This document shows, one piece after another, positions 4,874 through 44,904 of a stretch of 64,000 nucleotides of DNA. Within the stretch, counting starts at the first letter, position 1; each line of letters opens with the position of its first letter. The notes beneath the pieces were generated by a model, which had not been told where the DNA came from, made no database searches, and worked only from the letters and a program-made list of their open reading frames with translations. The stretch comes from Paraspadella gotoi. Lineage: Eukaryota; Animalia; Chaetognatha. The position numbers and the translations under genes were made by a program. The stretch spans positions 12,441,723-12,505,722 of the forward strand of contig CM119263.1 of the NCBI GenBank assembly GCA_051294375.1, read 5' to 3'.

Positions 4874-7800
4874 TTAATTGAGCATTGAGGGCGGAAACAT
4901 GCCAAGCTGAACAAAATCGTCCAGTATATCTACTAAGCTATTTTTGGTGAGTTCAGGTTTTTTATATTCGAAGCCCAGCTCCTCCATTTTTGAACCATCA
5001 AGATGAATAGGATAGTTGTTCAATAATTCTTCGTATAAGTAAGGGTTTAATGGGGTGTTGGAAAAGCCATCGTCTCGACATAACTTTTCGGAACAAAATT
5101 TGATTAATTTCATATAATCACATAATTGCGCTCCTCAGTTGAGACTAACCGTCGCCCAAGGCACCATGTGCTTGTCATTACATTCTTCTACGAAGCCCTG
5201 TAGATCTTTATTGGCAATATTAGATAATATAAAGCCAGCATAGCCATGAGTTATACCAAAAATTTCGGAAATCAAAGTTGTAACTTTCCCTTGCGTGGTG
5301 CAACCTTTGTCCACCATATGATAAACTTCAGCGACCTGGGTAAATCGTTTAAAATTTTTGAAATAAAAAATATATCAAATAAAAGTAAAACCTGCGCAAT
5401 ATTTTAGGTACTCTCCCTCAGCATCGACTACTGCCTGCATTCGTCTGGGCATGCTCTCGTACAGCGAATTGAAGTATGATGGTAAAATATTTTTTTTAAT
5501 TTTTAACAATAATTTTTTTAACCCTGCATTTTTAAAAAAAAAGTTACAATAACACCTTTATAAAATAATTAACTTAATTTAAAAAAGAAATAACTGAATA
5601 CCAAGAATGATAAAAAACTAAATACGATTTATTTCGCCATTTTTCACTTCACTTTTCACTTCATTTTTTGCCTGTAACTTTAAACCATTTGACCTATAAA
5701 AAATAGACAAAAACTACTAAAAAGAAATAAAAACTTTTTAATTTTTTTAGAATCAAACAAGTTTTTGAATAGATATCTTCCACTAAAAATATGATGTACT
5801 TTTTGCCTACTGTCCTGTGTAAAAAAAACGCGCGACTTTATAACTTTAAATTTTAAACGCTCTATAAAGATATTTTTAAAAATATATAAGTAAATAATTT
5901 AAAAAAAAAAGGAATCAATGTGTCTAAATTATATTAAGTCAAATGATTTAAGAGATATGATTTTTTAAACTTAGGTGTTCCAAAACCAAACGGGAAAATC
6001 GACTTATTAGCACAGCTTTCTTTTAACTAAAAAAACTAAAATGAAAAAAAAGCTATCATTGTGGTTGTAAAAAAGCTTTTAATATTCTGATTGCTCAAAC
6101 ACATATTCCAATGTCTCTATATGAAAGATGAGCCAAAATTTTAAACATTTCATTTTTTTTAATAAAAATATATCTTATAATTGAAAGGTCCTATTCAAAT
6201 ACAATTAAAAAAAAACAAAAAACATTAATGAGCATTAATTAACTAAAAAAGTAAGTAAGCTGGACTATTGGGAGTTAGAAAATAAAAAACGTCAGTAATT
6301 TTTTTACCAGAAAGCAAAATCTGAAAAAGCTAGATCAGATAATTTAACCACAGTATTGGATCATTTTATTTTATCCGTTTATTTATTATTTTTATTTATT
6401 TATTATTAAAATCCGTATAAAGCTTCAGAAACATGGACCTGTCTTTCATCATATGTTTTAATGACTTATAACTTTAAGATTATTATTTAAGATCTAGGGT
6501 AATCAAATTATCCAGCTATCACTCCGGATTAAGGCGTAGTGAAAGTTACATACGAAAATTCTAAAAGTCAATTATGAACAACATACCATCAGTGAACATT
6601 AATTTGTAAAAAAAATTAATTTTATGTTTTTTAATTTTCGCAGTAGGCTATATTTATATATAGTACTATCCTTATAAAATCGAAAAATTTTAAAATAGGC
6701 CTTTTTTAATTTTTATTGCAGATTTGAATTCCTCGTCAAAAGTTGATAAAAGAAAATATAAATCATTTTTAAAAATTTTTTCATTAAGTGGGTTAAAAAT
6801 TTAAAAAACTATATTTAATATATAAATTAAATAAATAAATTAATTTTCAGCTTAAAATATAGCTTTTTCTAATTTTTGACCCACTTAATGAAGCAATTTT
6901 TCAAAAAGAGTTATATTTCTTTTTACCAACTTTTTATGACGAATCCAAATCTATAAAAAAATCTTAGAAAAAACTGTTTTGAAATTTTAACATTTATTGG
7001 TTTAGTACTAGTATAAATATGGCCTACTGCGTAAATTGTAAAATTTATTATAAATTTTTTTATTACATAAATGTTCATTAGTATAATGTTGTTCGTTCCT
7101 CACTTTTAGAATTTTAATTAAAGTTAAATTTAAAAAAATTACTGCGCCTTACTCCGGATATTCAGTATTTGCAGTAAAGTACTTCATTTAAAAAATCATT
7201 GCTCCTAAATAAATGGCCCAATTTTAATAAAATTTATGCTAAAAAAATCATCTTTCAATAAACTTTAAATCGCTTTTAAATTTTTTTACAAATTCAAATA
7301 TATAAGGTGATTTTTAAAGTCTGAATCAATTTTTTTTTTTGCACAGGACCTGTAGATGGTATGATAAACTAATTTTTATTTTGAAATTCTAAAACGAGTA
7401 AAAACTGCAAAAATAAAAACCTTACGAGCCACAAGATTATTTCTTTTCTACTTTTGGTAATTGCTATACAGGTTACAATTGTATTTTTCCCTAAACTTAC
7501 TTGGCCATATTGAGAAAGATGCCAAAGTCCGCGGACGAGATCATCAACGTGTACTGTATTCAACATCAAATCCGCCGACCACAAAAGCTTCATCTTTTCA
7601 TTCAAATATTTATAAACGGCTCCCAAAACCTTAAGAAATTAATTATGACGAAAAGGTTTCTTCCAATGGGATGCAAATGTTTCTCACCATTCTTGGAGTA
7701 AGTCCGTAACGATCTGCCTTGCCATAAACAATCGCGGGTCGAACAATGATGTAATTTAAATTTTCTATTTTAGCTAGTTCGTTTTCAACCTGAAGACAAT

Positions 7801-10800: not shown

Positions 10801-13800
10801 TACGTAGAGAAGTTCATAATCACCAAGTTAAATCTTGTAAAGGTTAAAATTTTAAAAAAAAATTAAAAAACAAAAAAATAAAAAGTTTATTAACATAATG
10901 TCTTCCTCTCCAGGAAATCTTAAATTTTCGGAAATTCTTCAAGGATTTTCTTGGATGGAAAAAAGACGGGAATGACCCAACAACTGCTTCAAAAGTGAAT
11001 GCGTGTCGTGTTGCCAGCCAGTTCGTGGGCCTGGATGGAAAATAGAAAAGTTTCTTGGAGGACACTGCAATTGCGAGAAGGGCACGGGAGTCCTTGTTTG
11101 CTGTGACGCCGTGAGATCGATTTTTCTTTTCATGGGTTTAGATTCGACAAAGTATTGCCCTAAATTACGACACTGCAAAGTGTTTAATATGGCCAGCAGT
11201 GGTATGAATAAAAAATTTCAAAACTTTTTAAATTTAGATGATAGAACAATTTAATTATTCAAATGTAGGAGCTTGTGTTGAAATTGAGACGAGGCCATAG
11301 GGAAAGCGGCTCATGTGGTGGCCCTGTCCTTCCACCATAGTTATTACTCATAATCCTGACAAATCCAGGGGGATATTTGCAGGGAATTGATATGCATCGA
11401 CGCGGGCGGGGAAAAAAACACCCCACCCCAAAGCAAAGAAGTTTTAACTTGAAAACTTGATTTTTTTTTTGTCCCATAAAACTTTTTGTTATGAACGATC
11501 AATAATTATTTTAATTTTTAAAATTTGTCTTTGCCATTTTTTCTTGTAACAATTAAATTATTAAAAGGTATTGAATCTGTGATCTCAATTTTTTCGTTTT
11601 TAGGGAAAAGTTCAAGCCAATAACTTAACTTATCGGTTTAATATATTATTAAAAAATGCCTAATAACTGTTTGAGGTTGTTTTAAATTAGATTAAATATG
11701 TTCGGGTAACTTTTAAGTATAACCAAATAATTCAAATTTCATTCTTAATTTATAATTATCTGAAAATTTTTTTTGAAAAACTCAGAGAATCGTTAAAAAC
11801 AATTATTTTGATTGACCGTAGCAACTTTAAGCTCTGGGAAATGGCGAGATATTTAAGAAAAAAATGTACTTAAAAATGCTTTTATGTTTGTATAGCTCCT
11901 AAATACGAAAAGAATGGACACCCTTTTTCCGTAACTCTATGACAATTATTCAGCGGAAAAAAAATTTCTTAAAAGGATATCGTCGTAATCGCATAAGAAA
12001 AATCTGGATTGACGACAAATTTTGATACTGTGGCAGCAAGACTTAAAGCTGCCTCACTGCTGTCCGTCCTCAGCCTCGTCTCAATGGCTGAGCAGGCTAA
12101 ATCATCTCATTCCATCCGTGCGTCCCGGGTTCATCCCTGGGTATCCGGTTCTGGCTTAAATGTGACGGTGCCGGTATAAACATGCCAGTGACAGGAGGCG
12201 GTCACTGAGGGTCCGCAGCCCCTACGCCAGTTGGTGAATACCCCGCGCCCCGGGTATCACAGGCTATCCTCCCGTTGCCATAAGTGGTGAGCCCTACTCT
12301 CGAACACGCAACTGCTGCGCACCGTGCGCTCATGCTTACGTCGCTTAGGGTATGCATATCACGCCTATGCCCTACTTCTCTGGTAACGCTCCAGACTCGC
12401 TCGCCCGCTCGCTTCACTATGGCAATGAGATCAAAACCTTCTCTCAGACATCTCCTCAGGATTGAGGCCCCTGTGGAGAAGTCTGGTGGGGGATCCTGTG
12501 GCAGCAAGACTTAAAGCTGCCTCACTGCTGTCCGTCCTCAGCCTCGTCTCAATGGCTGAGCAGGCTAAATCATCTCATTCCATCCGTGCGTCACGGGTTC
12601 AATCCCTGGGTCTCGCCGGTTCTGGCTTAAATGTGACGGTGCCGGTATAAACATGCCAGTGACAGGAGGCGGTCACTGAGGGTCCGCAGCCCCTACGCCA
12701 GTTGTGTGAGATACCCCGCGCCCCGGGTATCACAGGCTATCCTCCCGTTGCCATAATACTAAAAATAATCAAATTTGAGCAAAGAAAATTAATTTATAAA
12801 CAGAAAGAAAAAGAAAAAAACAATAAACAAAGAAAGAATAGAAAGGAAAGAAAGAATAGAAAGGAAAGAAAGAATAGAAAGGAAAGAAAGAATAGAAAGG
12901 AAAGAAAGAATAGAAAGAAAAGAAAGAAAAATAAAAAGAGTAACGAGAAGAAAGAACGATGTTGCGATAACAAAATGATAACATGCACGAATGCGATGCC
13001 TAATTTTACGAGTTCAATCCCAATTCAATTTTTTTAATAAAAACGCAGAGAGAGAGAAGCCAAATCGTTTTTGGACGAATCAGCAGGAGAAAGAGAGAAA
13101 AAGAAAGAAAGCCCCTGCAGTGCCCAAGGAATCAGCGACTGGGGAAGGAGAGAGAGCTACATATAAGAGAAAAGAGAGAGAGAGAGAAAGAGACATAAAA
13201 ATAAAAGTAGAGCAAAATTGTTTATTTTGATAAACGTAAACAAAACGTATTTAATAAACGTCCTAACACAATTTCAAGGACCTCGATGATGAGAAGCTGT
13301 ATATAAATTTTCAGCTTCATATACCCAAATTTAATCTTCAAAAAGGCGATCTATAAATTAGAACGCCGACGACGACGACACTTATGTTCAAAAGCGTTAC
13401 GAGATCGTAGCAATCGCTTTGCGTTTGCGAGGATAACAAAAAACAAGAACGCTCTTTCCAATGTGTCGCAGTAACTTTCTTACTTATTTCCATGTGATTA
13501 CATTATAATATAATTATAAAACATATAACTTATCTGCAGTTTTAACTAAAATGACTAATTATTATACAAAATATATATTATTTTTTAATACATAACCGTA
13601 GTTTTACGAAATAACGTGACTAAATAAGTAAAACATTAATAAATGCTTTTTGTACGTTTCTTATTAATTTATTAAATATAAATTAAAATTTAATATTTTA
13701 TGAATAATATAGTATAAATTTTTAGTTTATATACATACTAAAAATACCTTTTTACTAAATATAAATTTAATAAAATATTATTAAAATTATAAACATTTAA

Positions 13801-14532
13801 AACGCAAATAAGGTAAAGCAGTAAACAAGCATACCGACCGACCAAAAAGTAAGTTATAGTTACTCCGCGAGTACGCAAGAAGACTTAGTAGGCAACGGAC
13901 TGGCTGACCTTGTAAACGGAGTCGTCTTGGCCAGGACGCGTCTCCCCTGCGCAGTTAAAGACGAAATCCCAGGTCTCTCCTTCCTCGATAAGGGATTCCA
14001 CGGCTTTCGCGTTTATCAAATTGGTAGAGACGAACTCAACTTTGCTTTAACGGGGAGCAAGCGAAAAACATTCAAAACTCTTGATTGATGCTCCTATTCA
14101 AGGTCATAATAGTTTTACACTCTATAATCTATACTTAAAATGCTGACAGAAGATAGAAATTAAGAGACATTAATTGTACGGAATACGTGATAATACCGTT
14201 CAATATAAGCAGTAAAGTGCACTACCAAACTGCAAATAACAATTATTCAAACTCCTTACATAAATTTTTAATTTCATTTTATTTGTCAGTGCTCCGAATT
14301 ACCCCTTTCATAATTAGCCGGCACTACCCTACGGCCAGGGTAAATCAGTACAAAGGAGTGTCACTTACCCTATAGCGCGTTTGGCCTCCTCGTTCATCCA
14401 ACTCAGTTCGGGGGGAACTTTATCCACGACTTTGACTCGGGAACAGAGATTATTGCTTGTGAGATACTGAACCAAATGTCTTCCTATAAAACCCGTACCT
14501 CCGAAAATCAGACACGTCGGTCTTTCAGACAT
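4874..14532 (-). CDS. NAD-dependent epimerase/dehydratase (extended SDR) family protein, multi-exon
   Basis: Exon 1 MSERPTCLIFGGTGFIGRHLV (GxxGxxG); WDFVFNCAGET (~13905-14045); RFIEISSG; IIVRPAIVYG; NTVHVDDLVRG; C-terminal exon 4874-5060. Two large repeat-filled introns. Confidence 0.82.
5399..5482 (-). pseudogene. Tc1/mariner transposase C-terminal relic
   Basis: Translates to PSYFNSLYESMPRRMQAVVDAEGEYLKY, matching the Tc1 C-terminal SMPRRxxAVIxAxGxxTKY motif. Confidence 0.8.
5810..7354. mobile_element. Tc1-type non-autonomous element (related copy ~42808-44276)
   Basis: TA-flanked imperfect TIRs CTGTCCTGTGTAAAAAAA / TTTTTTTGCACAGGACCTG; same ends in the TRAM1 intron; contains a nested long-IR MITE ~6520-7160 (related copy ~54680-55070). 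Confidence 0.55.
8430..11963. mobile_element. Degenerate ~3.5-kb TIR DNA transposon, superfamily not identified
   Basis: Imperfect ~60-bp terminal inverted repeats (TTTTCCGCAGAAAAT..AAAAGGTGTCATTCTTTCGTATTT vs AAATACGAAAAGAATGGACACCCTTTT..TTATTCAGCGGAAAA); interior has decayed coding-like composition. Confidence 0.55.
12151..12230 (+). ncRNA. Putative twister ribozyme, type P5 (5' LTR, copy 1)
   Basis: P5 CTGGC/GCCAG; P2 ATGT/ACAT; GA-CGG; P1 TGCC-GGTA; T^AA; GC; P3 CAGTGAC/GTCACTG; A; P4 GGG/CCC closing loop TCCGCAGC; pseudoknots CGG:CCG and GC:GC. Predicted cut between 12177 and 12178. Confidence 0.8.
12622..12701 (+). ncRNA. Putative twister ribozyme, type P5 (3' LTR, copy 1)
   Basis: Identical 80 nt to 12151-12230; predicted cut between 12648 and 12649. 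Confidence 0.8.
12830..12917. repeat. 18-bp tandem repeat AAGAAAGAATAGAAAGGA
   Basis: About 5 units inside the family A element. Confidence 0.9.
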
Positions 14533-16859: not shown

Positions 16860-18971
16860 TCATTTTTCCTCCAAAATTCGGTCAACGTAATGGTAGAGCA
16901 CAAACTCTCCGATTTTTTTTCCGTCTTTATCGTAATGGTACATCAGTAGACATTTGTCGCAGTAGAAGCAAGGATCGTCAGGGTCTCTCGGAGAGTCAGA
17001 CGTCATCCATGCGGCGGTGAAAGTATTACATGCCCTGCAGGGAATTCGCACCGGACGCAAGTGGTTGACGACGACGGGGTATCGAGATCGGTCGAAACAG
17101 TCGTCGGCGTGCAAAAGTCGGGCATCAGTGAATACAAACAAATGTTCGCAGTTTCCCTAAAATATAAGAATATAGACACTATCAGCTACGAAAAAATTAG
17201 ACAACAAAAAATGCAGACATAAGACTTCGCAGTGCTAAACTTAAAAAAAATCATATGCTTTTGACAACATTAACGTATCTTTCCCCCCTCAAGGAATTTG
17301 TTTCCTTCCAGGTTTTTTTTTTATATGAATAAAACCCCTCAACTCGCCTGATGAATGTAGACGTAAGGTTGACCTAAACGGATGGTGAGATCAATAAACC
17401 GAGTTTCGGTCATGTCGGCCTTCTTGAAATCGTTCATTTTCTTTCGCTTCGCCCAATCAATGATGTTTTGGCTGTAATCGATCGAAGTAACAGCGCGAAA
17501 GTCATTGTAGAAAGTTTCTTCAATAAAGAAACAACCCGAGGGGTAGAGGTCGCGATTGTGATGATCCTTGGGAAGGTTAGGATCCGACGAAAAATCACCA
17601 GGACACACATAATCGATTTGACACTGAAACCGATCGCGAAGTTCGTGGAGGTACTGTATTAAAACAAGCAGTTAAAAATAACCGGAGACCACGAATGAGT
17701 ACCTAAAAGTATAACATCAATAACCCACCTGTGTGGACAAGACGTTGTACGAACTGTCGGTCCTCATCTTGTGAAAGAAGTTGTCGCTGGTTTTCTTTTG
17801 GCGAAACTTAAAATTTCTGTATAAAGGAAGACAGGAAGTGAAAACTCCGAACGCTTAACTCCGCCTTCAAAATGCATTCATTTAAACCTTAACATGGTGA
17901 CAGTAAGAACGACCTCCGGAGCTTCCACGCGGTTCTCAAGTTCCTCTGGAAGTGGCAGCGATGAGAAATAATTGTATAACTTGGAATCTGGGTACCGAGT
18001 CATACCGCTCCAATTCTGAGAAAAATATATACATAAATATATACCCAGAGCAGCGAAACATTATTTATGAGCCGCCTACAAGGACTTACGAATTTATCCT
18101 TAAGTTTTTTCCGGCTTTTCAGTTTAAGAAACTGCGACGTCTTAAGATTGTTTTCCGGAATTTCCTGTAGCCAGTCCATTTGCTCGTGGTACATGTCATC
18201 ACCACCTAGTGATTTGTCACCCGTCACTGCTGTTAATTCTTCTAAGACATCGTCCGAAATTCCAGTCTTACGCTGTTGTTGACAGAAGTTGTTAGTGACA
18301 GAAATTGTTAGTGACAGAACCGTTCAATATAAGCAGTCCCTGAGTTTCGGATCAGGCTGTAACACCGTGTTACAGGCGGGTTAAGCGCCCCGTCCCTCTT
18401 AACTGCAAGGCTATTACCGGGCTAGAACCCCGGACCTTTGGGTTGGGAGGCGAATGACTTGCTTCCGGCACCAATGGCCGCTGAATAACGGTTGGTGGAT
18501 TTAAGTCCTCCATAGTAGTATTGGTGATTAACATCGTTTTATGAGGAAAACGCATATTATTTTTATTTGAGCAATATATTTCGGTTAACATCGCTTAACC
18601 ATAGTTCATTTGCGTTCATTAAGCGATGTTAACCGAAATATATTGCTCAAATAAAAATAATATGCGTTTTCCTCATAAAACGATGTTAATCACCAATACT
18701 ATGTACTCATACCGCATATACGATGACTCTCAAGCAATCCATAGTAGTATGAAATCTGATGCAAAACAGGCATCAACATCATTCAAAAAATCATAAAAAC
18801 ACATCCAACCTGAATGTAGGCCTCTTCGGTCTCCTCTACTATCTTGGTGGGAAGAAAAGCTTCTGAATCCGTTGTTCCCATTTGGAATCCCCAGTCGGAC
18901 ATAATGTCTTTAATATTGACAGGATCCGATATTCCGACGAAAACGCAATCGTCAGTTTTCGACAACGCCAT
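16860..18971 (-). CDS. SNAPC3: snRNA-activating protein complex subunit 3 (SNAP50)
   Basis: DLYPSGCFFIEETFYNDFR..DYSQNIIDWA..RFIDLTIRLGQPYVYIHQ|GNCEHLFVFTD..CRAC..PDDPCFYCDKCLLMYHYDKDGKK (zf-SNAP50_C-like); the ATG at 18971 is inferred. Confidence 0.9.
18290..18510 (-). mobile_element. Diverged tRNA-head plus twister-like element (solo-LTR or SINE relic) in SNAPC3 intron 1
   Basis: Minus strand: GACTTAAA (shared with the LTR 5' part), A-box-like TGGTGCCGGAAG, B box GGTTCTAGCCC, a degenerate P5-twister fold at 18406-18333, then TTCTGTCACTAACAA tandem units. Confidence 0.6.
18516..18701. repeat. Perfect 83-bp inverted repeat with 20-bp spacer
   Basis: Arms 18516-18598 and 18619-18701 are exact reverse complements. 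Confidence 0.95.
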
Positions 18972-21567: not shown

Positions 21568-22398
21568 AGATATAATGTGGGCTCAATAATGTAAAAAACG
21601 ATGCCGCGAACAGGGTGCGAACCCGGGTCCTTTGGGTAGAGAAGAGCTCACGCTACGTCCGGCGCCATAGGTACTGCTGATTCTTTAACGAGTAAAGGGG
21701 CTCTAGAGCTTCTCTCTCTCTCTTTTAATTATTATATATCGCTCTTTCTCTCTCTCTTTTTCTCTGCAGCGGCTGTCTGTTTCTCTCTTTTTCTCTCTGT
21801 GTGTGTATGTCCCCCTCTGTCCGATCTCTTGCGTGATCGTTGTTTTTTGAAAAATTCTGATTATTTTTTTCCTTCTAAAAACTTTTTATTATTACATTTA
21901 TTCCGCGCTTTTTTCAATACAAAATCCCATATTTTCATCCGAGATTTTCGGGGATTTATTCTCTTTCTTTCTCTCTCTCTCTCTCTCACTTTCTCTCTCT
22001 CTCCTCTCTTTCACTCATACACGCATTTGTTGTTTTATTGACTATCATCGCATCAATGAATGACAATCATCGCATCAGTGAATGACTATCATCACAGCAG
22101 TGAATTACTATCATCGCATCAATAATGATTATCATCGAATCAATAATCAATTCCTATTACATAAATAAATTACTATTACATCAATCAATTAGTATTACCT
22201 CAATCAATTACTATTACATCAATAATTCGTTATCGCATGATTTATTCGTTTTTTTCCCGGGTTTTTTCATTAATTTTCTTTGATAGTGGGCTCTGGCTCG
22301 ATCTTGAGTCTTTTAAGATTTTTTTATTTTATGTCTCCTTCTCTCTCTCTCTCTCTCTCACTCTCTCTCTCTCTTACTCTCTCTCTTCTCTCCTCACT

Positions 22399-24877: not shown

Positions 24878-26549
24878 TTATTCTGAATTAGTTTTTGGAA
24901 GGTTGATAATTCCATCATCAAAGTTGACGCGCTTGATTTCTTCCCCTCTGGCTGCCAGAATCTCCTCGATATTTTTTTCAGAGTCCCTGTCGATAAGACA
25001 TAAGCCATTAGGTGAATAATTATAATCGAAATTAAACGGAAAATAATAAAAATAATCCTATTTCTAAGAGAAAAATCTTAAAAGCATAAGGATCGTCGCA
25101 ATCGCATAAGAAAAATCTGGATTGACGACAAATTTTGACACTAAAAAAATTAAATTTTAGAAAGAAAATTAATTTATAAACAGAAAGAAAAAGAAAAAAA
25201 AAGAATAATAAATATAAAACAGTAAAATAACTTATTTTCGAGTTTAATTTTAAGCAAGTGCTAAGTCTGGAAAGACATTATTGAAGGTACTTTTGTTTTA
25301 CTTTTAGCCCGCATAAGCGAGGAGTTTGATCGAATGCAACCTCTCTAAACACTGTCAACATTCCCAGACAAAAGACAAAGTGAAACTCGAATCAGTCTGA
25401 CGAAGTGAAGTAAAGACTATAGACTATAGTGAAGTAAAATGAAGTAAAGTAAAATAAAATAATAAAGTAAATATATATTGAAAAAAAAATATTATTCTGA
25501 TTGATATTTAGAATATTTAGGAAAAAAAATCCACAAAAATCTCGGATGTAAATTTGGGAATAAATGGCGATAATAAAGTTTTTAGAGGGAAAAAATTATT
25601 CAGAGAGAGAAAGAGAAAGAAATAAATCAAAAGGCAGCAGCAGAAGCAGCAGGAGAAAAGAGAGAAAAAGAATAAGCCCTGCAGAGTCAGCTGCAGACTC
25701 AAAAGGCAGCAGCAGAAGCAGCAGGAGAAAATAGAAAAAGAATAAGCCCCTGCAGAGCCAGCTGCAGACTCGTTTTTTTTCCCTATGAATCAGTGACTAG
25801 GGAAAAGAGAGAGGGAGAGAGACATGTCATTAAAAGAGAAAAGAGAGAGAGAAATATAAAAATAAAAGAGAGAAAACTTGTTTGTTTTGATAAAACGTAA
25901 TCAAAACATATTTAATAACTGTCCAGACTCAATTTTAAGCACATCGATGATGAGAAGCTGTATATAAATTTTCAGCTTCATACACCCAAATTTAATCATA
26001 AAAAGGCGATCTATAATTTGGAAAGATCTATAATTTGGAAAGACAACGACGACGCCACTTATGCGCAAAAGCGTTACAATATCGTCGCAAACGCTAAGCG
26101 ATTGCGTCGATTAAAAGTTTGAAGATATTCTGAACAAACATCGCTTTGTCTTTCTTAATTTTATTTTCTATACTTAATTTTATTGTGTTAAATTACCTGA
26201 ACCACCCGAGATTGTCGGCGATAAGATGACGATTTTCGCAACCGTCACAAAGCACGATAACAACGCCCTTCTCGTATGAGTTCTTATTAATGAATTTCTC
26301 AACCCGAGAGCCACACACTTTACAGGTGAACCCGAGAAAAAGTTTTCCTTGGATTTTCGCTAGGGGTATCGGGGTAGAGTTGTAGAGGGTGGAGAACGAT
26401 TGAAAGGATCGAGACGATTTCAAGAAAGACGAAGCAGCGATCGATGAAATCAATTGCACGCCGGAACGCGTTTGCCCGATCTTATATGAGAAGTTCACGA
26501 AATGACGAGACCCCACCCCACGCAAAACGCGAATCAAACCGACAGACAT
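24878..26549 (-). CDS. DNLZ: DNL-type zinc finger protein (mitochondrial Hsp70 escort, Hep1/Tim15), 2 exons (26549-26197, 24986-24878)
   Basis: Arg/Ser-rich presequence, then FTCKVCGSR..SYEKGVVIVLCDGCENRHLIADNLGWF|RDSEKNIEEILAARGE. Confidence 0.95.
25071..26112. mobile_element. Helentron/HINE-like non-autonomous repeat, family A (other copies 544-1176, 8400-13433 interrupted, 43425-44056; ends at 31251-31353 and 36142-36200; inverted fragment ~22437-22470)
   Basis: Shared start AAAATCTTAAAAGCATAAGGATCGTCGCAATCGC, (GA)n-rich core and terminal hairpin ATCGTCGCAAACGCTAAGCGATTGCGTCGAT, whose arm is inverted to the start motif; sits in A/T runs with no TSD seen. Confidence 0.7.
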
Positions 26550-26564
26550 TTTGTTGTAGCCGAA

Positions 26565-27698
26565 TCACTTGCGGAGCTTAAAGTCCCTTGCTAATACGAA
26601 TATTTCCGAAGAATCGGTTCGACTGGATTCGGGTTTTACGATATTGACTCTTGAAAAGTTTGTTGTTAATCCTAAAAATAATTGTCAAAACAGCAAGATA
26701 TCCGTTAGGTTAAAAAAAAAATCTAGCTCACCACGAACCACAGCGTCGGTGTGGTAGCCGTCCCACAACTTGAAGAGAAGTATTCCCCCCGGCTTGAGAA
26801 AGTGACGCGCGAGGGAAAAAGCGGATTTTGCCAGGTGACCAATGACAACTTGATCGTGTTCAGCAACGCCGGTGCTGTTGGGAGCCATGTCGCTTAAGAC
26901 GACGTCGATGCATCGCGGATTGAGCTGATGTTCTTTGCGGAGAAACTGTCGGGTGTATTCCCCGAGAACCTCCGTTATCTTCGCTCGAGTGTCGTCCGCA
27001 TTTATGTCAGTATGGGACAGGAAAAGGGCCCCTTTGAGGGGAGCTATGGCGTTAAGGTCGAAGCCAATGACGATTCCCGATTCGGGCGACTCGGCAAAGC
27101 TCAAAATCTCCGACTCTTCAAAGCCGACGGGGCGTTTGTGGAAGTTAAGTAGCTGCCTGCAAAATGACAGTGGTTATTAATGAAGTACAAGCAAACTATA
27201 AAATTACACAAACGAACAAACTTATGATAGTCCGCCATAAATGCCAAACAGACAGGACCAACTATCTCCTATTCAGTCTCCTCTAGTTAGGTCCTAAGTA
27301 CTGACCGAACGGATTGAGGTTTTTCCCCAATGTGTCTTCCCCTTGTTCTCTGAACCGCGACTTGAGACCAAGATCCAGGAGCTGCACCGCAATCGAGAAT
27401 GATCTGTCCTCGGGAAAAGATAGCGTGCTTATCGTCAATCTCAAGCAGCTTGAAGGCACTTCGGGCGCGGTAGTTTAGCTTTGCAGAGGCCTGACGACGA
27501 ATGAGGACAACAGTTTCTACGAGGAAAACGTCATGTTTACGGACTGATCTCCAAACGAACCTTGACGTATGGGTCACGTTTCTGCCGCTCCAGCCATAAA
27601 CTGCTACTTTGTGATTTTTTCCGTAAAGAGGAAATCCATAGGAATCTCGTTATTTTAAGATCGAAAGAAAGGATATTAAACTTCGTGGTTAAAACCAT
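26565..27698 (-). CDS. MRM2: Mitochondrial rRNA 2'-O-methyltransferase (FtsJ/RrmJ family)
   Basis: [16 protein letters not shown]|[34 protein letters not shown]; [13 protein letters not shown]; [15 protein letters not shown]; last exon [20 protein letters not shown]; TGA at 26565-26567. Confidence 0.92.
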
Positions 27699-27979: not shown

Positions 27980-30900
27980 TCAAATTCCCATTTTCTCGGC
28001 CAGTTCTTCTATTTGCTTCAGGACGACGTTTCCGTAGGCGACTGGCTCGAACTTCTTCGCTTCGTAAACTGTGGTCTTCAAGCGAGCCTCGTCGTTGTAC
28101 GTCTCCTAATTAAATTTAGCGTTTAGAAATACGTCGAATTGCTTCACATTTCAAAATAAGATTATAAGTGTATTTTTATAAAACGGACCTCCTTAGCTCT
28201 CATTCGAAAAGTGAATGGTTTAAAATTGACGTCAGCAATGACGTTGTCGTACTCGGTGGGATTGTCTTCTTTAAGTTTTCCGAGCTGATCGGCCGAGACG
28301 TTTAGCAAAACCTCTCCGCTTTCTTGAAACAAAGTCGCCCAACAATTGTCAGAAAAATCGGCTAAATTGACCTTAAATAATTGATAAACGCATAAAATAA
28401 TAAATCGTTCTTTATATTTTTTTCGCGTAATAGGCCAAACCTGCAACATCATGCGCCACTTGAAATTGTCAATTTCTTTTTGGCATTTCTCGCACCTGAA
28501 AACAAAAGAGGAAAATGGCTTTAAATTACAGGGACTTCAATCTGACCGATACGAAAAGACTTGATTAAATTCGTAATTCTTTCACTGTATATTGTTTTTA
28601 TAACATTTATTAGTTAGAAAACTATTTGACATTTATGTTGGCCTAAAAAAGGTAACATTTCTAATAGTATAATCACATTGGCTCTCAAGCTCTCAAGCGC
28701 GTAATCACTTTTCTTCATCAAAATTTTAATAGTTTTATCAATTTAACAATTTTTAATACCGATTATGAATTTAATATGTAAAAATAAAAAAAAATAGTAA
28801 TAAAAAGTCAGTTTGGTAATTTGTTATTACAAAAAAATTTCGTATAAAACCTAACTTATTTAATATTATTTATCAACAAAGTTGTCTTTCGTAATTTTTT
28901 TCCCCACGCTGAAATTTTTATTTTTAATAGATTTTAAAGGGAAATTGTGATGATTATTATCAAGTATTATTCATATTATAATTTTTTTTAAATATTCTGG
29001 TTCGTAATACATTTACTACAATATCTTATTAATCATAAAAATTAAGCACGAAAATTTTTTTTATTGTTTTAATAGAAACTGAAGAATTGATAGAAAGATC
29101 CACTTTTAAAATAACAAGTTTGAGCAAACAATGTCGGATCTGCCTACGAAAATGAATTAATTAATGAATTAATTTTAATATTTAATAATTAATTATAAAT
29201 TTATATACAGCTTAACATCATCATCAGGACAGTTATTAAATATGTTTTGTTTACATTTTATCAAAACAAACAAATATCCTCAATTTTATTTTATGTCTCC
29301 TTTTCTTTCTTTTTCTCTCTCTTAAATTTTGAGATAAGAAGGAGATTTAATTTATTTATGTAACATGAAAGAAATTAAGAAAAAAGAATAATAATATAGA
29401 ATACGAGTAAAATTAACGGTTATTTTGCGAGTTTGTAATTGTTAAGTTTGCAGAGGTGCTTAAGGTCTTGGATAATATGACCATTTTATTGTGAAGGTAA
29501 GCTTTTTGCTTTTACTTTTAGCTCGCTGCATAAGTGCCGAGGAGTTTTGATGGCGATATGAACCTTCTCTTAAACACACTAGTCAATCATTCCAGACAAT
29601 AAGTACAATGTGATAAACTCGAATCAGTCTGACGAGAGTGAGTAAAGACTATAATGACTATATGTTGAAAGTAAAATAGTAAGAGTAAAATAAAATATAA
29701 TAAAAGTAATATATAGGTAAATTGAAAAAAAATATTATCTGATGTGATATTTAGTAATAGTTTAGTGGAAAAAAAATGCCAAGCAAAAATCTCGGATGTA
29801 AATTTGGGTGAAAATGGCGATAATAAAGTTTTTAGATTGGGAAAAATATTATTCAGAGAGAGAAAGAGAAAGAAATAAATCAATAAGTGCTAGGCAGCAG
29901 AAGCAGCAGTAGAAAAGTAGACAGAAAGAATAAGGCCTGCTTAGGTGGTAGTCAGTTTGCTGTGTGCATGATCTGCAATTAAGGTGCAGCAGCAGAATGT
30001 CTAGGCATGTGTTATATAGATTAAGAGTTTAGAGAAAGGAGAATAGAGGTCTCTGCTGCCTCGAGATGCACTATGTCTGTCAGACTCGTTTTTTCCCTAT
30101 GATATCAAGTGCTTAGGGAAAAGAGAGAGGGAGAGAGACATGTATTAAAGAGAGAGAAAAGAGAGAGAGAGAAATATAAAAATAAAAGAGAGAAAATTGT
30201 TTGTTTGATAAAACGTAATCAAAACATATTTAATAACTGCCCCAGACTCAATTTTAAGCACATCGATGATGAGAAGTGTATATAAATTTTCAGCTTCATA
30301 CACCCAAATTTAATCATAAAAAGGCGATCTATAATTTGGAAAGATCTATAATTTGGAAAGGACAACGACGACGCCACTTATGCGCAAAAGCGTTACAATA
30401 TCGTCCGCAAACGCTAAGCGATTGCGTCGATTAATAAAGTTTGAAGATATTTCTGAACAAACATCGCTTTGTCTTTTCTTAATTTTATTTTTCTATACTT
30501 AATTTTATTGTGTTAAATTACCTGGAACCACCCGAGATTGTCGGCGATAAGATGACGATTTTCGGCAACCGTCACAAAAGCACGATAACACGCCTCTTCC
30601 GTATGAGTTTCTTATTAATGAATTTCTCACCCGAGAGCCACCACTTTTGCAGGTGAACCCGAGAAAAAGTTTTTTCCTTGATTTTCGTCTAGGGATATCG
30701 GGGTAGAGTTTGTAGAGGGTGGAGAACGATTGAAAGGATCGAGACGATTTCAAGAAAGACGAAGCAGTCGATCGATGAAATCAATTGCTACGCGCGAAGC
30801 GTTTTGCCGCGATCTTATATGAGAAGTTCACGAAATGACGAGAACCCCACCCACGCAAAACGCGAATCAAACCGGACAGACATTTTGTTGTTAGCCCGAA

Positions 30901-33900
30901 TCACTTGCGGAGCTTAAAGTTCCCTTGCTAATACGAATATTTCCGAAGAATTCGGTTCGACTGGATTTCGGGTTTTACGATATTGACTCTTGAAAAGTTT
31001 GTTTGTTAATTCCTAAAAAATATTGTCAAAACAGCAAGATATCTCGTTAGGTTAAAAAAAAAATCTAGCTCACGCACGAACCACAGCGTCGGTGTGGTAG
31101 GCCGTCCACAACTTGAAGAGAAGTATTCCGCCCGGCTTGAGAAAGTGACGCGCGAGGGAAAAAGCGGATTTTGTTGCCAAGGTGACAAGATTGAACTGTT
31201 GTAATCGTGGTTTTCTCTAGTGTCAATCGCCGGGTGGCTGTTGGAGCTCATCTTAAAAGCATAAGGATCGTCGCAATTGCATAAGAAAAATCTGGATTGA
31301 CGACAAATTTTGATACTAAAAAAAATCAATTTAAAAAAAAAAAATTTATAAACAAAAAAGAAAAAGAAAAACCAAGTGGATCAATAATAATAATAATATT
31401 AAAAATTTTACCCGATAAAGCAATTAGGCATTCTGAAAAAAAAGTCAAACAAAAACAAGCAACTATTTAATATATATAGTACCTGCGAATACTTCTTTGT
31501 TCCTCCCGCTCCGGGAGCCTCCGTAGCATTGCAGCGCGTAACGCGTAGAATAGTGTTTGGCCGGATTTCATCGTTGTCAACGACTTGATTGTAAGTACTG
31601 TTCAGCATCGCGCTGGAAAGGTTGATAAAAAATATTGACGCTATGAAAAAAGCCCTCAATGTTTTTCTGTTAAGAAACAGAATACATACAGAATGCTTCT
31701 ACTTATATTATATTATAAACTTATGCTCGCCCGTTTTATCGATCAGAAAATCGTTTTCGACCAAATTACTGATCCAAATGCAATGAAATTTCGTATAACG
31801 TATCGTATTGGCTATAGAAATTGGAATATCGAGGAGATTTTTAAAATTCCACCAAAAGCCGAGATATGGGCTCCGAAGTTGTCAGCATGGCGGAAAGTGG
31901 CATAATTTAAAAAAAAAGGGGAAAAAATCCAGTTGGAACAGTTGCAGGAATGTTTGCTTGCTCATAAAAAAATATTTTAGCTTTATTTGCATGTCATGTC
32001 AGCTTTCATGTGGCGAGCAAAAATTCGAGGTAAAATGATGGATCATGCATGTTTCAAGAAAAAAATTCCTACAGTTAATAAAAATTGGTTTTTTAAAGAG
32101 CTTTCTTTTTTTTTACAAACGTTTGAACGTAAATGATCAAGAAAAAAAATTTTCGTTAATTTTATGCCCCTATGGCCCTGTATCTCGGCTCAGGGGTAAA
32201 CAAAAAAAGAGTCGATAATCCCATTTGGTTTAATAGTTGGACGAGAAGTCATTCTCGATCAACAAACTCGGGAGAACATTTTCTAATATTAACTTATGTA
32301 TTTGACTTAGCCACAATATTATATAATATATATATCCTACTTAGAAGAAGAGTGAACGCCGTCATGCATAAGAACTCTGTATCTGCCATTGACGTTCTTG
32401 CAGGCTGTAACTTGGATGACGAATTCACGACCGTCATAGTTGCCAGTACACAACTCCGCGACAATGCCTGGAGTCAATCGCGGTTCCATCAGTCTTACAA
32501 AAGAAAATTTAAAGCAAACGAACTGAGCAAAAATAGAAAACATAACAATACAAATAATCAAAAACTTTATAATTATATGTCGACTTTTTCTATGAGCGAG
32601 GGAGAATCTTCAATGATTTTACTGCTTTCTTGCGTATCGTCAAGGGGTTCCGGGTCTTGCCAATTCGTTGCTCACCAGCTACATCTACAGCTACAGTCTC
32701 GTCTATCTCGATGGGAATGTGAGCGATCAGATCATTCCGAATCGATTCTGGGGTCTTCGACATTATCTCTCGCTTTTTCCTCTTTTCTAGTCTCACTCTC
32801 TTGTCAAACTCTTTTCGTTTGACTAAATCACTAAGAAGGGTCTCGTCGTCTTCTGGCAATTCCGTTTTCCTAGTTCGTTTTTTCGTCTTCACTCCTCTTT
32901 CGATCCTCTCTGATCTACGCTCAAAGGTCCCTCCGAGTCGTTTGGCGCTTGATACCCGACGATGCAGTCATCAATTACGTCGCGAGATAGAAGAACGAAG
33001 AAGGCGGGAAGAACATCATTTCTTAGTTGGTTAACAGGCTCGGTAGTGGCCTGGTTAACTTGATAAAGGTCCCGAACCAGCTTCTTCGTCAACTCGGCAC
33101 AGGCGATCACTTTAGATACAGCGTCGCCACGTCCTTTCCAAAGGATTTGGTGAACCGATGAATCGGCCAGGCGATTCACCGCATACTAAAAATAATTTTT
33201 GTATAAAATTATATGAAATCCTTGGACAAGAAAGAAAAATTTTCCACCTAATAATTCGACAACCGAATATTACGTGAATTCGAGTTCTTGCCTTGACTAG
33301 GGATTTGACATTACTCTTTTCCTTGACGTTCATAACGAGGGCGTTGGGGCTGAGACATTCTACGGGAGTTAACATCTCCGTCATGGCATTTCACTGGTTA
33401 AACGGATTGAAAATAAAAAACTAGAGAAGCTACTTGATTAAATAAAACGGGTCTAATAATTCGTTCTATATCTCCATAACCTAAACAACAATAGGATTTA
33501 CATTCGTAACTTAGCTAGAAACTGCTAAAATTGAATTTTTAATTAATGTTTACAATTTTTACATATTTGTAGAGCAGAGGAGCACGTTTTTCATCGACCC
33601 CATAATGGATGAGCAATCTCAATAAAACTTATCGGGGAAGAAAAGCGGTAAAATTTCATAAAACAAGATCCATCCATCCATTGTGTTGCGCCGCAGTGAC
33701 TTTATTTCATGTGTATTTCTCGTAACATGACATGAGGCGATATGACTACAACTTCCTTAGCCTGTATATTTATGACACGCACTGCCTAGAAATTCCGTCT
33801 TTTATTCTTTAAAGTTTTAGGATTTCCTAAAGGGGGCGCTAGCAGTCCCTTAGATTTGAAGTTTTTTTCTGTCTTAACAAATGAACATCAATAAACAAAT

Positions 33901-36863
33901 TATGTGCATTTTTAACGTTAGTGGGACAGACCGACGAACAGACATACCGACCGACAAGTAATTTATAGAGTTGCTCCGCTAGTACTCGCGGCGCAACTAA
34001 AAAAATTTAAGATGAAACTACAAGATTTTGGAATATAACCAATTCTGTAAGAAAAGTTAGTTCTTCAATTCACGTCTAAATTGACTTCGTGTATTATTTC
34101 GATGGTTAGCAGATTAGCAAATTTGAGGAGATAGTATTGGAGGAATGTGTTGTCTAGTTAAGTAACAAAAATGCGTCGTTACTTAACGCCGAATTCTGAA
34201 AACAGCACAATACATACATTTACCATTTGTAAAAAGAATGGAAGCTAATGATTTTAACAAATGATGTATCTGAAAAAAACAAGTGATCCATTTTTCAATT
34301 ATTTCGTCAGATCTGGTCTTACGCCAACGGCTTTTGGAATAAAAACCTTGGCGTACTATTATTCAGCAACTTATCTAAAATGACTAGATATCTCCGAATG
34401 CATAAAATTAATCTGGTTTACAATCCTAAAATGATATGACCGCGTTATTGATTTTAAAAGTTTCTTTTCGTACATTATTCACTTGACCTAATTAAAATCG
34501 AAATCTTCCAAGGGATTTCAAAATTTCTAGAAAGGATCGCCGAGATATGACACTCAAAAAAAATTAACGAGTGTTCCCACAACACTAAAATTCCAGCGTG
34601 CTCATTTCGATTTTTTGTTTTTGATCTGCTGTTGGTCGGCTTCCGGCAAATCATCATATTCCTTCTTTTTGAGGTTCTTGAGCGAGACGTTGGCCGAACG
34701 CAGACCTGTTTTCTTCTTGCTCGAAAATTCTACGCTGTACTCTCGACGACGCCGGAGATGAAAAGTGATAAAGGTCCACATCAGCTTCGCCTAAAAATTA
34801 GAAAAAGTAGTAAACCAGTTAGAATCTTGTGGAGTTCTTCACAATAAAAAATAAAACCCAAAAATACCTGCATCAGACAAATAGCCGTTAGGCAGTTGAT
34901 CCTAATAATTTGAATGTTGTAATTTCCTTCGGCCGTGTTAAGCGTTCCGGCGCTCGGGGACAGCGGGAGCCCATACCAAAAAGTGAGGATAGCCAGAGTG
35001 AAAGACAGAAACCGCGCAATGACGAAGAGGGTGTTGTACCCATAAAAGACGAACTTGGCGACCGTGGGCTGCTCAGCAAAATACAGGAGTCGCCCGACGT
35101 GGCGAAACGCCTCAACCAAATATTGGGAGAGCAACAGGCAGAGCGTGATCCGAGAGAAGTTAAGAGCGTAACCCACTACGGTAAAGATCAGGTAGAAAGC
35201 GGCGTATTGCACTCGGGAAGACAATTCGTCCTTCTTCACTTTCTGGAAGTAAAGTTCTGGGAAACAGTGCAGCCAGTAGGCGAATTTGAATGATGAAGAA
35301 GAACTTGGATACGAAAGGCATGGAGACGTGCTCGGTAGGGTAGCCAACCCAAAGATTAGACAGGTCCCAAACGAGATGCTCCGACAACATGATGTCTACA
35401 CCCCAAACGATAGAAACCAAGTAAAAGACAATCAACTGTCCGGATTCGTTAAATTTGGAATGCTTCAGTTTGGAAAGGTGCATCCGGCGGTTGATTTTAT
35501 CTGCAGCAAAGGAGGAAAAGTTAGTAACTGTGCAAAAAAAAAGGGCGCCACTTTATAACTTTAAATTCCAAACACTAAAAAAATATTTTTTTAAATTATA
35601 GAAAAAATAAATTTTAAAAAAAATTTATGTATATATTATATACATAAATTTTTTTTAAATTTATTTTTTCTATAATTTAAAAAAATATTTTTTTTAGTGT
35701 TTGGAATTTAAAGTTATATAAACTATTACTATCCTTCCGGTATATATATATATATTATATATATTTTTATATTGGTTGTACCAATTTCATAAAAGTCAGC
35801 TCCTTGTATTTTGATGCTAGTGCGGAGTACAATAAGTATTCCCCGATCTAATACTTAAGGGAGTGGTTCTTTTCATACAATTGAAACATTCTTTGAAATA
35901 TTTTCACTTCATTGATAGGAAGCCAGGTACTCTGGGAGTGAATAAATGGGACTGTGAGAGAGTCTTGGTTGAAAAGCTTGCAGGGACCTGCTATGTAATT
36001 ATCTTGTAAAGTGATGGAGGCCTTAAACCACCAAAAGCCTGTCCAAAGTCAGGGGCAAGATAGCTTATTTATTAAATGAATGGATAATTTTTATTTTGGT
36101 TGTACCAATTTCATATATATATATTTTATTTTTAATCTATTACGCCACTTATGCGCAAAAGTGTTACAATATCGTCGCAAACACTTAGCGATTGCGACGA
36201 GAAAAACTTCTTCAGAAATTTACCCTCTGAGGAAAATGTTTATAACTTAGCAACTATCCTAGCTAGAATGTTACGAATTGATGGGAAAAAAGTCAAATAT
36301 ATTTTTATTAGTACAAAAAAATTTTACAAACCGAATGCTCTTCGTTTCGATTATATTACAAGTTTTTTCGTATCACTCCAGGTTGAAGTCCCTATATAAA
36401 CTAGAGAAAACCTCCCTAAGACTAAGTATTGAAAATCTTGACACACAAATTGTGTGTCACAATACCTCCACTTCCCACTTCCGAGGTCGTTGACCTTCTT
36501 GTTACATTTTTCCTGGTTGCACGCTGGGTAGAGCGCGTTGTCTTTTTTCGTGAACACAACGCTTGCTTTAACAGAGTAGTAATCAGGTTTCTCTCCACGG
36601 CCAAGTTTTTCTAGAGTCGTCTGCTTGAAGCACTTCCAGTTAGAACCGATATCGCCGTCTTTGCGTGAGGAGCCCGTCGACAAAGAAGAGAAATCTTGGG
36701 CGTGAACTCCTTCGTTCTCCCACCAACCTCTTAAATTAAAAACGCAAGAATGAACAAGAGTAATACAATTTACTTCATCATACACGTACGTGCATACCTA
36801 CATACATAATACATATTGCACTTTTATTATTAGAGTTAAAACAGGGACAAAATTAGCGATGTT

Positions 36864-39767: not shown

Positions 39768-39850
39768 CAGTCTTACAAAAGAAAATTTAAAGCAAACGAA
39801 CTGAGCAAAAATAGAAAACATAACAATACAAATAATCAAAAACTTTATAA

Positions 39851-40665
39851 TTATATGTCGACTTTTTCTATGAGCGAGGGAGAATCTTCAATGATTTTAC
39901 TGCTTTCTTGCGTATCGTCAAGGGGTTCCGGGGTCTTGCCAATTCGTTGCTCACCAGCTACATCTACAGCTACAGTCTCGTCTATCTCGATGGGAATGTG
40001 AGCGATCAGATCATTCCGAATCGATTCTGGGGTCTTCGACATTATCTCTCGCTTTTTCCTCTTTTCTAGTCTCACTCTCTTGTCAAACTCTTTTCGTTTG
40101 ACTAAATCACTAAGAAGGGTCTCGTCGTCTTCTGGCAATTCCGTTTTCCTAGTTCGTTTTTTCGTCTTCACTCCTCTTTCGATCCTCTCTGATCTACGCT
40201 CAAAGAGTCCCTCCGAGTCGTTTGGCGCTTGATACCCGACGATGCAGTCATCAATTACGTCGCGAGATAGAAGAACGAAGAAGGCGGGAAGAACATCATT
40301 TCTTAGTTGGTTAACAGGCTCGGTAGTGGCCTGGTTAACTTGATAAAGGTCCCGAACCAGCTTCTTCGTCAACTCGGCACAGGCGATCACTTTAGATACA
40401 GCGTCGCCACGTCCTTTCCAAAGGATTTGGTGAACCGATGAATCGGCCAGGCGATTCACCGCATACTAAAAATAATTTTTTGTATAAAATTATATGAAAT
40501 CCTTGGACAAGAAAGAAAAATTTTCCACCTAATAATTCGACAACCGAATATTACGTGAATTCGAGTTCTTGCCTTGACTAGGGATTTGACATTACTCTTT
40601 TCCTTGACGTTCATAACGAGGGCGTTGGGGCTGAGACATTCTACGGGAGTTAACATCTCCGTCAT
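39851..40665 (-). CDS. RPP25: Alba-domain RNase P/MRP subunit p25-like protein
   Basis: MNVKEKSNVKSLVK|YAVNRL..ILWKGRGDAVSKVIACAELTKK..LYQV..LPAFFVLLSRD..GYQAP (Alba/Rpp25 pattern) with a basic/acidic tail. Confidence 0.8.
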
Positions 40666-41882
40666 GGCATTTCACTGGTTAAACGGATTGAAAATAAAAA
40701 ACTAGAGAAGCTACTTGATTAAATAAAACGGGTCTAATAATTCGTTCTATATCTCCATAACCTAAACAACAATAGGATTTACATTCGTAACTTAGCTAGA
40801 AACTGCTAAAATTGAATTTTTAATTAATGTTTACAATTTTTACATATTTGTAGAGCAGAGGAGCACGTTTTTCATCGACCCCATAATGGATGAGCAATCT
40901 CAATAAAACTTATCGGGGAAGAAAAGCGGTAAAATTTCATAAAACAAGATCCATCCATCCATTGTGTTGCGCCGCAGTGACTTTATTTTCATGTGTATTT
41001 CTCGTAACATGACATGAGGCGATATGACTACAACTTCCTTAGCCTGTATATTTATGACACGCACTGCCTAGAAATTCCGTCTTTTATTCTTTAAAGTTTT
41101 AGGATTTCCTAAAGGGGGCGCTAGCAGTCCCTTAGATTTGAAGTTTTTTTCTGTCTTAACAAATGAACATCAATAAACAAATTATGTGCATTTTTAACGT
41201 TAGTGGGACAGACCGACGAACAGACATACCGACCGACAAGTAATTTATAGAGTTGCTCCGCTAGTACTCGCGGCGCAACTAAAAAAATTTAAGATGAAAC
41301 TACAAGATTTTGGAATATAACCAATTCTGTAAGAAAAGTTAGTTCTTCAATTCACGTCTAAATTGACTTCGTGTATTATTTCGATGGTTAGCAGATTAGC
41401 AAATTTGAGGAGATAGTATTGGAGGAATGTGTTGTCTAGTTAAGTAACAAAAATGCGTCGTTACTTAACGCCGAATTCTGAAAACAGCACAATACATACA
41501 TTTACCATTTGTAAAAAGAATGGAAGCTAATGATTTTAACAATGATGTATCTGAAAAAACAAGTGATCCATTTTTCAATTATTTCGTCAGATCTGGTCTT
41601 ACGCCAACGGCTTTTGGAATAAAAACCTTGGCGTACTATTATTCAGCAACTTATCTAAAATGACTAGATATCTCCGAATGCATAAAATTAATCTGGTTTA
41701 CAATCCTAAAATGATATGACCGCGTTATTGATTTTAAAAGTTTCTTTTCGTACATTATTCACTTGACCTAATTAAAATCGAAATCTTCCAAGGGATTTCA
41801 AAATTTCTAGAAAGGATCGCCGAGATATGACACTCAAAAAAAATTAACGAGTGTTCACCACAACACTAAAATTCCAGCGTGC

Positions 41883-44904
<3,022 letters not shown>

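Follow-up and report, generated by a model that had tools for sequence, protein, structure and literature searches.

A tRNA-like head joined to a type-P5 twister fold in a high-copy repeat within intron 1 of SNAPC3 in the chaetognath Paraspadella gotoi

Results

SNAPC3 intron 1 and its two insertions

The window, by which we mean the whole 64,000-nucleotide stretch of Paraspadella gotoi DNA that was analysed, carries SNAPC3 on its minus strand, with Pfam PF12251 on one exon. Homolog searches placed the host among animals, the best named matches being 53-64% identical and coming from several phyla. Intron 1 of the gene (18273-18809, minus strand) is 537 nt long and runs from GT to AG. Contigs of five of the eleven listed runs (X2, X5, X7, X8 and X9) provided the family data described below, and X9 is presumed to be an RNA run. 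The acceptor at 18273 is in use, since an X9 contig joins 18272 to 18810 across the intron; the earlier note on this DNA had placed an acceptor at about this position. One X9 contig spans five skipped introns, and the joined exons stay open to the stop. The fifth intron (17157-17347, minus strand) appears to be GC-AG, judging from the X9 joint and the open frame.

Two insertions account for most of intron 1, which measures 68 nt without them; three of the other four introns are 71-75 nt long and one is 191. The first is the repeat element that is the subject of this study. The second is a nested 229-nt insertion (18509-18750) whose arms (18516-18598 / 18619-18701) form a perfect 83-bp hairpin. 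A 13-bp direct repeat flanks it and takes in the first six bases of the element; the hairpin insertion is likely the later of the two, and further copies of it turn up in the DNA runs. In X5, X7 and X8, contigs extend from exon 2 across the tail of the element as far as 18332 with no differences, which places the 3' part of the insertion, at the least, in all three individuals examined. The earlier note had the tail run into the exon acceptor; the AG itself more probably belongs to the host. A candidate target duplication just before the AG matches in 4/5 letters (3/4), and weakly suggests that the element inserted two bases 5' of the host AG with a short duplication.

Other repeats are scattered over the window. 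Long palindromic repeats lie at 6555-7115, 54593-55152, 35554-35718, 42833-43000 and 53360-53476. There are also two duplications, one of 4.8 kb at 99.4% identity (31354-36142 / 38630-43424), which may be recent or an assembly artefact, and one of 1.8 kb at 86% (25167-26830 / 29349-31173).

A repeat with a leader, a tRNA-like head and a twister fold

The element (18275-18514, minus strand, ~240 nt, delimited by the family boundaries in contigs) is a decayed copy of a high-copy family that combines a tRNA-like head with a twister fold. The earlier note had assigned it to 18290-18510; the element is indeed there, with its start corrected to 18514 and its end to ~18275. It is sense to SNAPC3, as had been claimed, both being on the minus strand. 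A 33-nt leader (18482-18514), containing a small hairpin round an 8-mer (18507-18500), precedes the tRNA-like head (18410-18481), which has an A-box-like motif (18473-18462), a B-box-like motif (18429-18419) and acceptor-stem-like ends. The type-P5 twister fold follows (18333-18406), a 74-nt core parsed by its motifs. The tail (18273-18332) consists of three imperfect 16-nt units, with branch-point-like motifs ~20 and 36 nt before the intron closes at its acceptor AG (18274-18273). Both box motifs were thus found ahead of the twister string that the earlier note had quoted, and the string itself sits exactly at 18406-18333.

The acceptor-stem-like ends of the head form 4 of 7 pairs in this copy and all 7 with the family majority letters; three of the eight copy-specific changes disrupt this helix. 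ARAGORN at its normal threshold called no tRNA in the head, and Rfam likewise found none. A call of the head by ARAGORN at relaxed threshold was dropped as uninformative, because 171 such calls were made across the same window. Elsewhere, a tRNA-like stretch at 21610-21680 (minus strand) is 68% similar to the head over 72 columns and is followed by a T run, without a ribozyme.

The twister core

Read 5' to 3' on the minus strand, the core opens with one strand of P5, the 3' strand of P2 (18398-18395), G-A (18394-18393), one strand of T1 (18392-18390) and a 6-nt linker. It continues with UAA (18383-18381), a 3-nt P2 strand (18380-18378), GC (18377-18376) and P3, and ends with P4 round its loop (18351-18344) and the second P5 strand. 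This is the permuted type-P5 order, with the termini in P5 and with both P4 and P5 paired. The pairing helices are P3 (8 bp), P4 (4 bp), P5 (5-6 bp) and the pseudoknot T1 (3 bp), which joins 18392-18390, within the G-A plus T1 stretch 18394-18390, to 18350-18348. The L1 residues of the twister class (UAA; G-A) are present, as are the catalytic-type residues, G at 18394 and A at 18382; the predicted cut site lies between 18383 and 18382. P4 is closed by an A-U pair, not by a G-C pair; in the sister LTR family described below, G-C closes P4. The pairing that the earlier note gave for P3, P4 and P5 is borne out, but P1, which it also counted as paired, cannot be a normal stem, consisting of one G-U pair round four bases.

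A lax type-P5 descriptor, composed with the element already in view, matches five sites in the window (the element and four LTR copies) versus three in 60 dinucleotide-shuffled windows, a chance rate of 0.05 per shuffled window. The fold of the 74-nt core has a z score of -2.53, with 3 of 200 shuffles equally good. Elsewhere, the core pattern with the short P2 gave 66 matches (2 viral, 64 in metagenome contigs), none of them with a 4-pair P4, and the pattern with a 4-nt P2 gave 107 viral matches, none with the helices. ViennaRNA, whose folds ignore pseudoknots, places a rival helix between the linker and the P2/T2 strand at -27.4 kcal/mol, versus -16.4 kcal/mol for the pseudoknot-free twister secondary structure; its two-strand optimum (-68.3 kcal/mol) is not the twister dimer (-44.5 kcal/mol).

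Rfam gave no match at gathering score over the 64-kb window. At E<=5, region 18100-18800 returned 16 matches, mostly miRNA models on the adjacent hairpin, with neither twister nor tRNA among them; at E<=10, the element itself returned two chance matches and no twister. This silence weighs little, because the sister LTR, with its near-canonical twister, was missed too, giving no match at E up to 10. The earlier note had named a single-copy sequence with no significant covariance-model score as evidence against the fold: the element has no Rfam twister score, and it is not single-copy. We regard the fold as almost certainly a real twister derivative.

A sister LTR family in the same window

Two full elements of a sister family lie on the plus strand at 12029-12755 and 57047-57779, the first consisting of two LTRs, each with a tRNA-like head and a twister, together with PBS-like and PPT-like stretches; both are flanked by 4-bp target duplications. 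The sister elements share paired LTRs of ~255 nt, PBS-like and PPT-like stretches, TG...TA ends and a near-canonical type-P5 twister in each LTR. The 8-mer of the SNAPC3-intron leader recurs in the four sister LTRs, at 12040, 12508, 57058 and 57535, with two more matches elsewhere in the window, where 5.5 would be expected by chance over its whole length. Both families begin with T-R-T-G-G, and the 8-mer hairpin lies at most 20 nt from the start.

Pairs between the two families were matched by hand from motifs, since MAFFT aligned them wrongly; the ambiguous register of P1 and P5 kept these two stems out of the comparison. In this single hand-set comparison of two families, 11 of the 19 pairs in P2, P3, P4, T1 and T2 are identical, 6 are changed on both sides and 2 are broken. 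These six compensatory pairs uphold the proposal that the element belongs to a homologous second family with the element order and pseudoknot of the LTR twister. They imply long, not necessarily recent, selection on the fold. An old relic at 14141-14235 (minus strand), in an intron of another gene, retains the P5 arms and the 3' tail without the twister core, which is replaced by a 14-nt loop; the match, from a comparison of four sequences, is 70% over 73 nt with E 3e-6. Either the core was deleted or the relic predates the twister.

A B-box-like stretch ending in CCA (~56955-57000, plus strand), shortly before the second full LTR element, resembles the 3' half of a tRNA. At 60368-61861, a remnant ORF without a Pfam match lies between 259-bp inverted ends, and we take it to resemble a GIY-YIG/Penelope-type end. 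A link between the twister family and this Penelope-like remnant was rejected, as a relaxed scan requiring the L4 GC found no twister motif there.

A copy-specific lesion and a family-wide short P2

The SNAPC3-intron copy carries a lesion in the pseudoknot T2 at 18345 (minus strand), equivalent to G30 of the rice twister: it has A where the family has G. L4 therefore reads AC at 18345-18344, and T2 keeps one of its two pairs. In the family, 18345 is G in 98.9-99.9% of depth in all five runs, and the 2-bp T2 is restored in the majority, which answers the earlier question whether the family has the L4 GC. In the rice twister, G30 is among four positions where each substitution left relative activity <0.2 (PMC5113685), and passages of PMC11662667 report that a single T2 defect in natural twisters took mean cleavage from 0.76 down to 0.53. 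Because of this base change and the published T2/G30 data, the copy, already suspected to be dead, is probably inactive or much impaired.

P2 (18378-18398, minus strand) has a 3-nt 5' strand (18380-18378) facing 4 nt (18398-18395). The earlier note was right that P2 is one base short; as a sign of decay in this copy the shortness does not stand, since the family shares the 3-nt strand. For the P2 region, no insertion or indel is listed at the 1% level of family depth, so P2 is not restored in the family and the short P2 is a family trait; a variant that gives three straight P2 pairs makes up 1.7% of depth in X2. According to passages of PMC11662667, P2 defects and most P4 defects are tolerated among natural twisters; a G-C closing pair of P4 is described in part of PMC5408937 as essentially invariant. 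Eight clear sites separate this copy from the family majority, and the chance that such changes hit a critical base is 0.14-0.38; selection for inactivation in a sense intron thus lacks statistical support, being indistinguishable from chance. Judged by its sequence, the family itself is somewhat more probably catalytically active than dead.

Abundance, boundaries and variants of the family

That the element is multi-copy is confirmed by a very abundant family in the contigs of the five runs. Its summed contig depth relative to the single-copy flank is ~1.7e4x in X2 and 3.8e4x in X5, and 530-1,230x across four DNA runs after division by 31 for contig overlap; neither ratio is a copy count. At the 5' boundary (18514), at least 54 X2 contigs exit into unlike flanks. 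On the 3' side, the sequence is shared by the family down to 18306, and 18274-18295 is at single-copy depth; past 18306-18308, at least 74, 54 and 19 X2 contigs enter a common end of ~25 nt that is missing from the SNAPC3-intron copy. The family boundary begins with TA-TG, and the conserved end is CA by the loose-end consensus. At least 1 of 9,115 X2 contigs holds a two-copy joint, in which the start of one copy leads into the end of a second. The loose ends listed for this family include neither a PBS nor a PPT, and none of those listed lies at the predicted cleavage site; the joints listed for X9 include no go-back joint.

The common non-CpG variants sit at the end of a helix or the margin of a loop (18407, 18368), and internal core deletions are seen in single contigs. 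Enrichment of family contigs in X9 over the neighbouring hairpin repeat is clear versus X2 and absent versus X5; as a sign of expression it was set aside, since it depends on which DNA run is compared. The scarcity of CpG-type variants in X9 was set aside as well, since contigs drop rare variants.

A self-complementary P1 linker

The P1 linker (18384-18389, minus strand) consists of six fully self-complementary bases, that is, one G-U pair and a palindromic tetraloop. Its hairpin is calculated at +5.6 kcal/mol and its 6-bp self-duplex at -8.3 kcal/mol. The P1 linker of the sister family (57188-57195) is also fully self-complementary; over both families, the hairpins range from +5.0 to +5.6 kcal/mol, with self-duplexes of -8.3 and -10.9 kcal/mol. 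Self-complementary linkers are thus found in 2/2 families, against a background of 5% of 6-mers and 2% of 8-mers.

Discussion

The best explanation, to which we give about an even chance, is that the SNAPC3-intron element is a decayed copy, probably a solo LTR, of an abundant non-coding retroelement, with a tRNA-like head that is likely a Pol III promoter and a type-P5 twister that would process two-copy transcripts. Intact members should, on this prediction, cleave themselves, whereas the one T2 base change has likely inactivated this copy. In the proposed cycle, Pol III would start in the head of one LTR and read through the second LTR, and cleavage by the twisters at U^A in both LTRs would release a unit RNA. 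As in hammerhead retrozymes, this unit RNA could then close into a circle, and a borrowed reverse transcriptase would copy it back. The LTR reading is favoured because the leader lies upstream of the transcription start of an internal promoter: the 5' boundary of the family is sharp and lies 33 nt before the tRNA part, and an internal Pol III promoter would not be expected to transcribe this 33-nt leader. Length and layout are similar to those of the sister paired LTRs, and the leader motif is shared. The conserved CA end, the two-copy contig and the candidate 4-5-bp target duplication may be LTR-like as well. It counts against an LTR that the SNAPC3-intron copy lacks both the family 3' end and a clean target duplication, and no paired LTRs of this family were seen in the contigs examined.

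In a tRNA-derived SINE the tRNA part comes first, an A-rich or simple-repeat tail closes the element, and the flanking duplication spans 7-20 bp. Alternatively, the family may be a tRNA-derived SINE-like element or tandem non-LTR retrozyme, similar to Sm-alpha except that a twister replaces the hammerhead, in which monomers are freed from multimeric transcripts. The high abundance, the intronic single copies and the copy-specific tandem tail would suit such an element, as would the loose ends without PBS or PPT, and the head-to-tail contig fits a tandem pair equally well; however, dispersed copies end sharply at a leader whose motif recurs in a proven LTR family, and the matches listed include no loose end at the predicted cleavage site. 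The precedent is Sm-alpha, tRNA-derived and present in >10,000 copies, with a promoter followed by a hammerhead (passages of PMC2770079, PMC6765202). Here, the 5' flank and 18240-18310 share no long target duplication, the longest common stretch being 7 nt and in the exon, and the family consensus lacks a poly(A) or simple-repeat tail, in loose ends of 30 letters that do not fix the true 3' end. We consider this alternative unlikely, though it deserves to be taken seriously, and the LTR reading distinctly the more probable of the two.

A somewhat more doubtful possibility is that the twister is dead in the master copy of the family, and an ordinary SINE or solo LTR spreads a fossil fold. The family-wide short P2, the A-U closing pair of P4 and the stronger rival helix could be seen as traces of decay; yet natural twisters tolerate P2 defects and most P4 defects (passages of PMC11662667), and the majority keeps T1, T2 and the two catalytic-type residues intact. 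The core deletions, in single contigs and in the relic 14141-14235, and the lack of an Rfam score would also be expected of a fossil, whereas the common non-CpG variants fall where a helix ends or at a loop edge (18407, 18368), and the six compensatory changes speak for long selection on the fold, maybe not recent. A chance arrangement in a G+C-rich repeat is hardly credible: it could appeal to the missing covariance-model match and to a descriptor written with the element in view, but it faces 0.05 descriptor matches per shuffled window, 0/66 and 0/107 matches elsewhere with the helices, and six compensatory pairs against an independent family.

If the processing of two-copy transcripts by an LTR-borne twister is accepted, the P1 linker suggests how it may be controlled. 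This linker is probably too short to fold well alone, and two self-complementary copies could pair into a 6-bp P1. If one transcript held two repeats, these would exchange strands, complete P1 and cut. Such a need for a dimer would favour the cutting of two-copy transcripts, and would largely spare solo copies in host introns and unit circles. In the axolotl, a hammerhead that has a single pair plus a palindromic tetraloop cleaves weakly alone and well as a dimer (PMC7229834). Pairing of two copies may, however, be unneeded, because P1 is dispensable in other twisters (passages of PMC5408937, PMC11662667). Provided that the family is active, we put a dimer gate a little short of even. The boldest reading comprises at least two families of Pol III-driven twister LTR retrozymes that are naturally dimer-gated, cut only with two repeats per RNA or in trans, so that unit circles and hundreds or thousands of intronic solo copies stay uncut; taken as a whole, we find it improbable.

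The type-P5 twister was reportedly described by Roth et al. in 2014. The present fold agrees with it in the termini within P5, the UAA loop, G-A followed by a 3-bp T1, the GC-GC T2 (in the family majority), P3 and P4 (passages of PMC5408937), and the base of P3 looks, by eye, like that of the S. mansoni twisters (PMC8501958, Table 1). It differs in having a 6-nt self-complementary linker as P1, a 3-nt 5' strand of P2, an A-U pair closing P4 and no Rfam match, with cleavage predicted only. A documented twister in an animal retroelement, likewise with a weak P1, is that of the T variant of the Perere-3 LINE; it is of type P1 and at the 5' end of an autonomous LINE, whereas here it is internal, of type P5 and in a non-coding element (passages of PMC8501958).

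Among tRNA-bearing LTRs, Helenus TRIMs ('TRIMp3') have a leader, a tRNA-like region with A and B boxes and a short non-coding repeat, with solo copies and thousands of LTRs (passages of PMC10886601). Their LTRs carry the leader ahead of the tRNA part (passages of the PMC10886601 supplement), and the 4-bp duplications of the sister family match those of animal Helenus (passages of PMC10886601). The SNAPC3-intron family is like Helenus at the motif level, with A and B boxes behind a leader; paired LTRs with PBS-like and PPT-like stretches were seen in the sister family. The main text of PMC10886601 holds no mention of twister and has 'ribozyme' just in one reference, and a motif search of passages of its supplement found no twister loop in any LTR. 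Two wasp LTRs in passages of that supplement, Helenus-2_SyJa-LTR and Helenus-2_SyUm-LTR, show by eye, immediately after the B box of the tRNA part, a type III hammerhead core whose loops are complementary; the text of the paper makes no ribozyme claim for them.

Retrozymes, of the LTR type in plants and the non-LTR type in animals, are also small non-coding retroelements with a self-cleaving motif in each repeat, and amphibian hammerheads likewise have a weak helix and a palindromic loop that needs a partner (PMC7229834, PMC4918200). They use a hammerhead, in contrast to the twister fold and tRNA-type promoter read from sequence here. Sm-alpha and Sj-alpha place a tRNA-derived head before a self-cleaving ribozyme at very high copy (passages of PMC2770079, PMC6765202); again the ribozyme is a hammerhead, unlike the present combination of a twister, an LTR-like leader and a sister family with paired LTRs. 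Titles and abstract openings surveyed included no twister in a tRNA-headed or LTR element and no natural dimeric twister, with subscription papers and the supplements of twister surveys (PMC11662667, Roth et al. 2014) outside this coverage.

We know of no role for most eukaryotic twisters, and the Perere-3 LINE is the documented retroelement twister that we found. A twister in tRNA-promoter repeats would join two groups that were described separately, the Helenus TRIMs and the hammerhead retrozymes. The SNAPC3-intron copy has no evident effect on the gene beyond a longer intron 1 and an altered sequence before the acceptor. The family provides a short twister substrate that suits a test of gating by two-copy pairing, and such gating would explain how many self-cleaving motifs are tolerated in sense introns. 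If the reading with two dimer-gated families is true, then, together with the hammerhead-like cores of the wasp Helenus LTRs, it would mean that LTRs combining a tRNA promoter with a ribozyme arose repeatedly, with different ribozyme classes.
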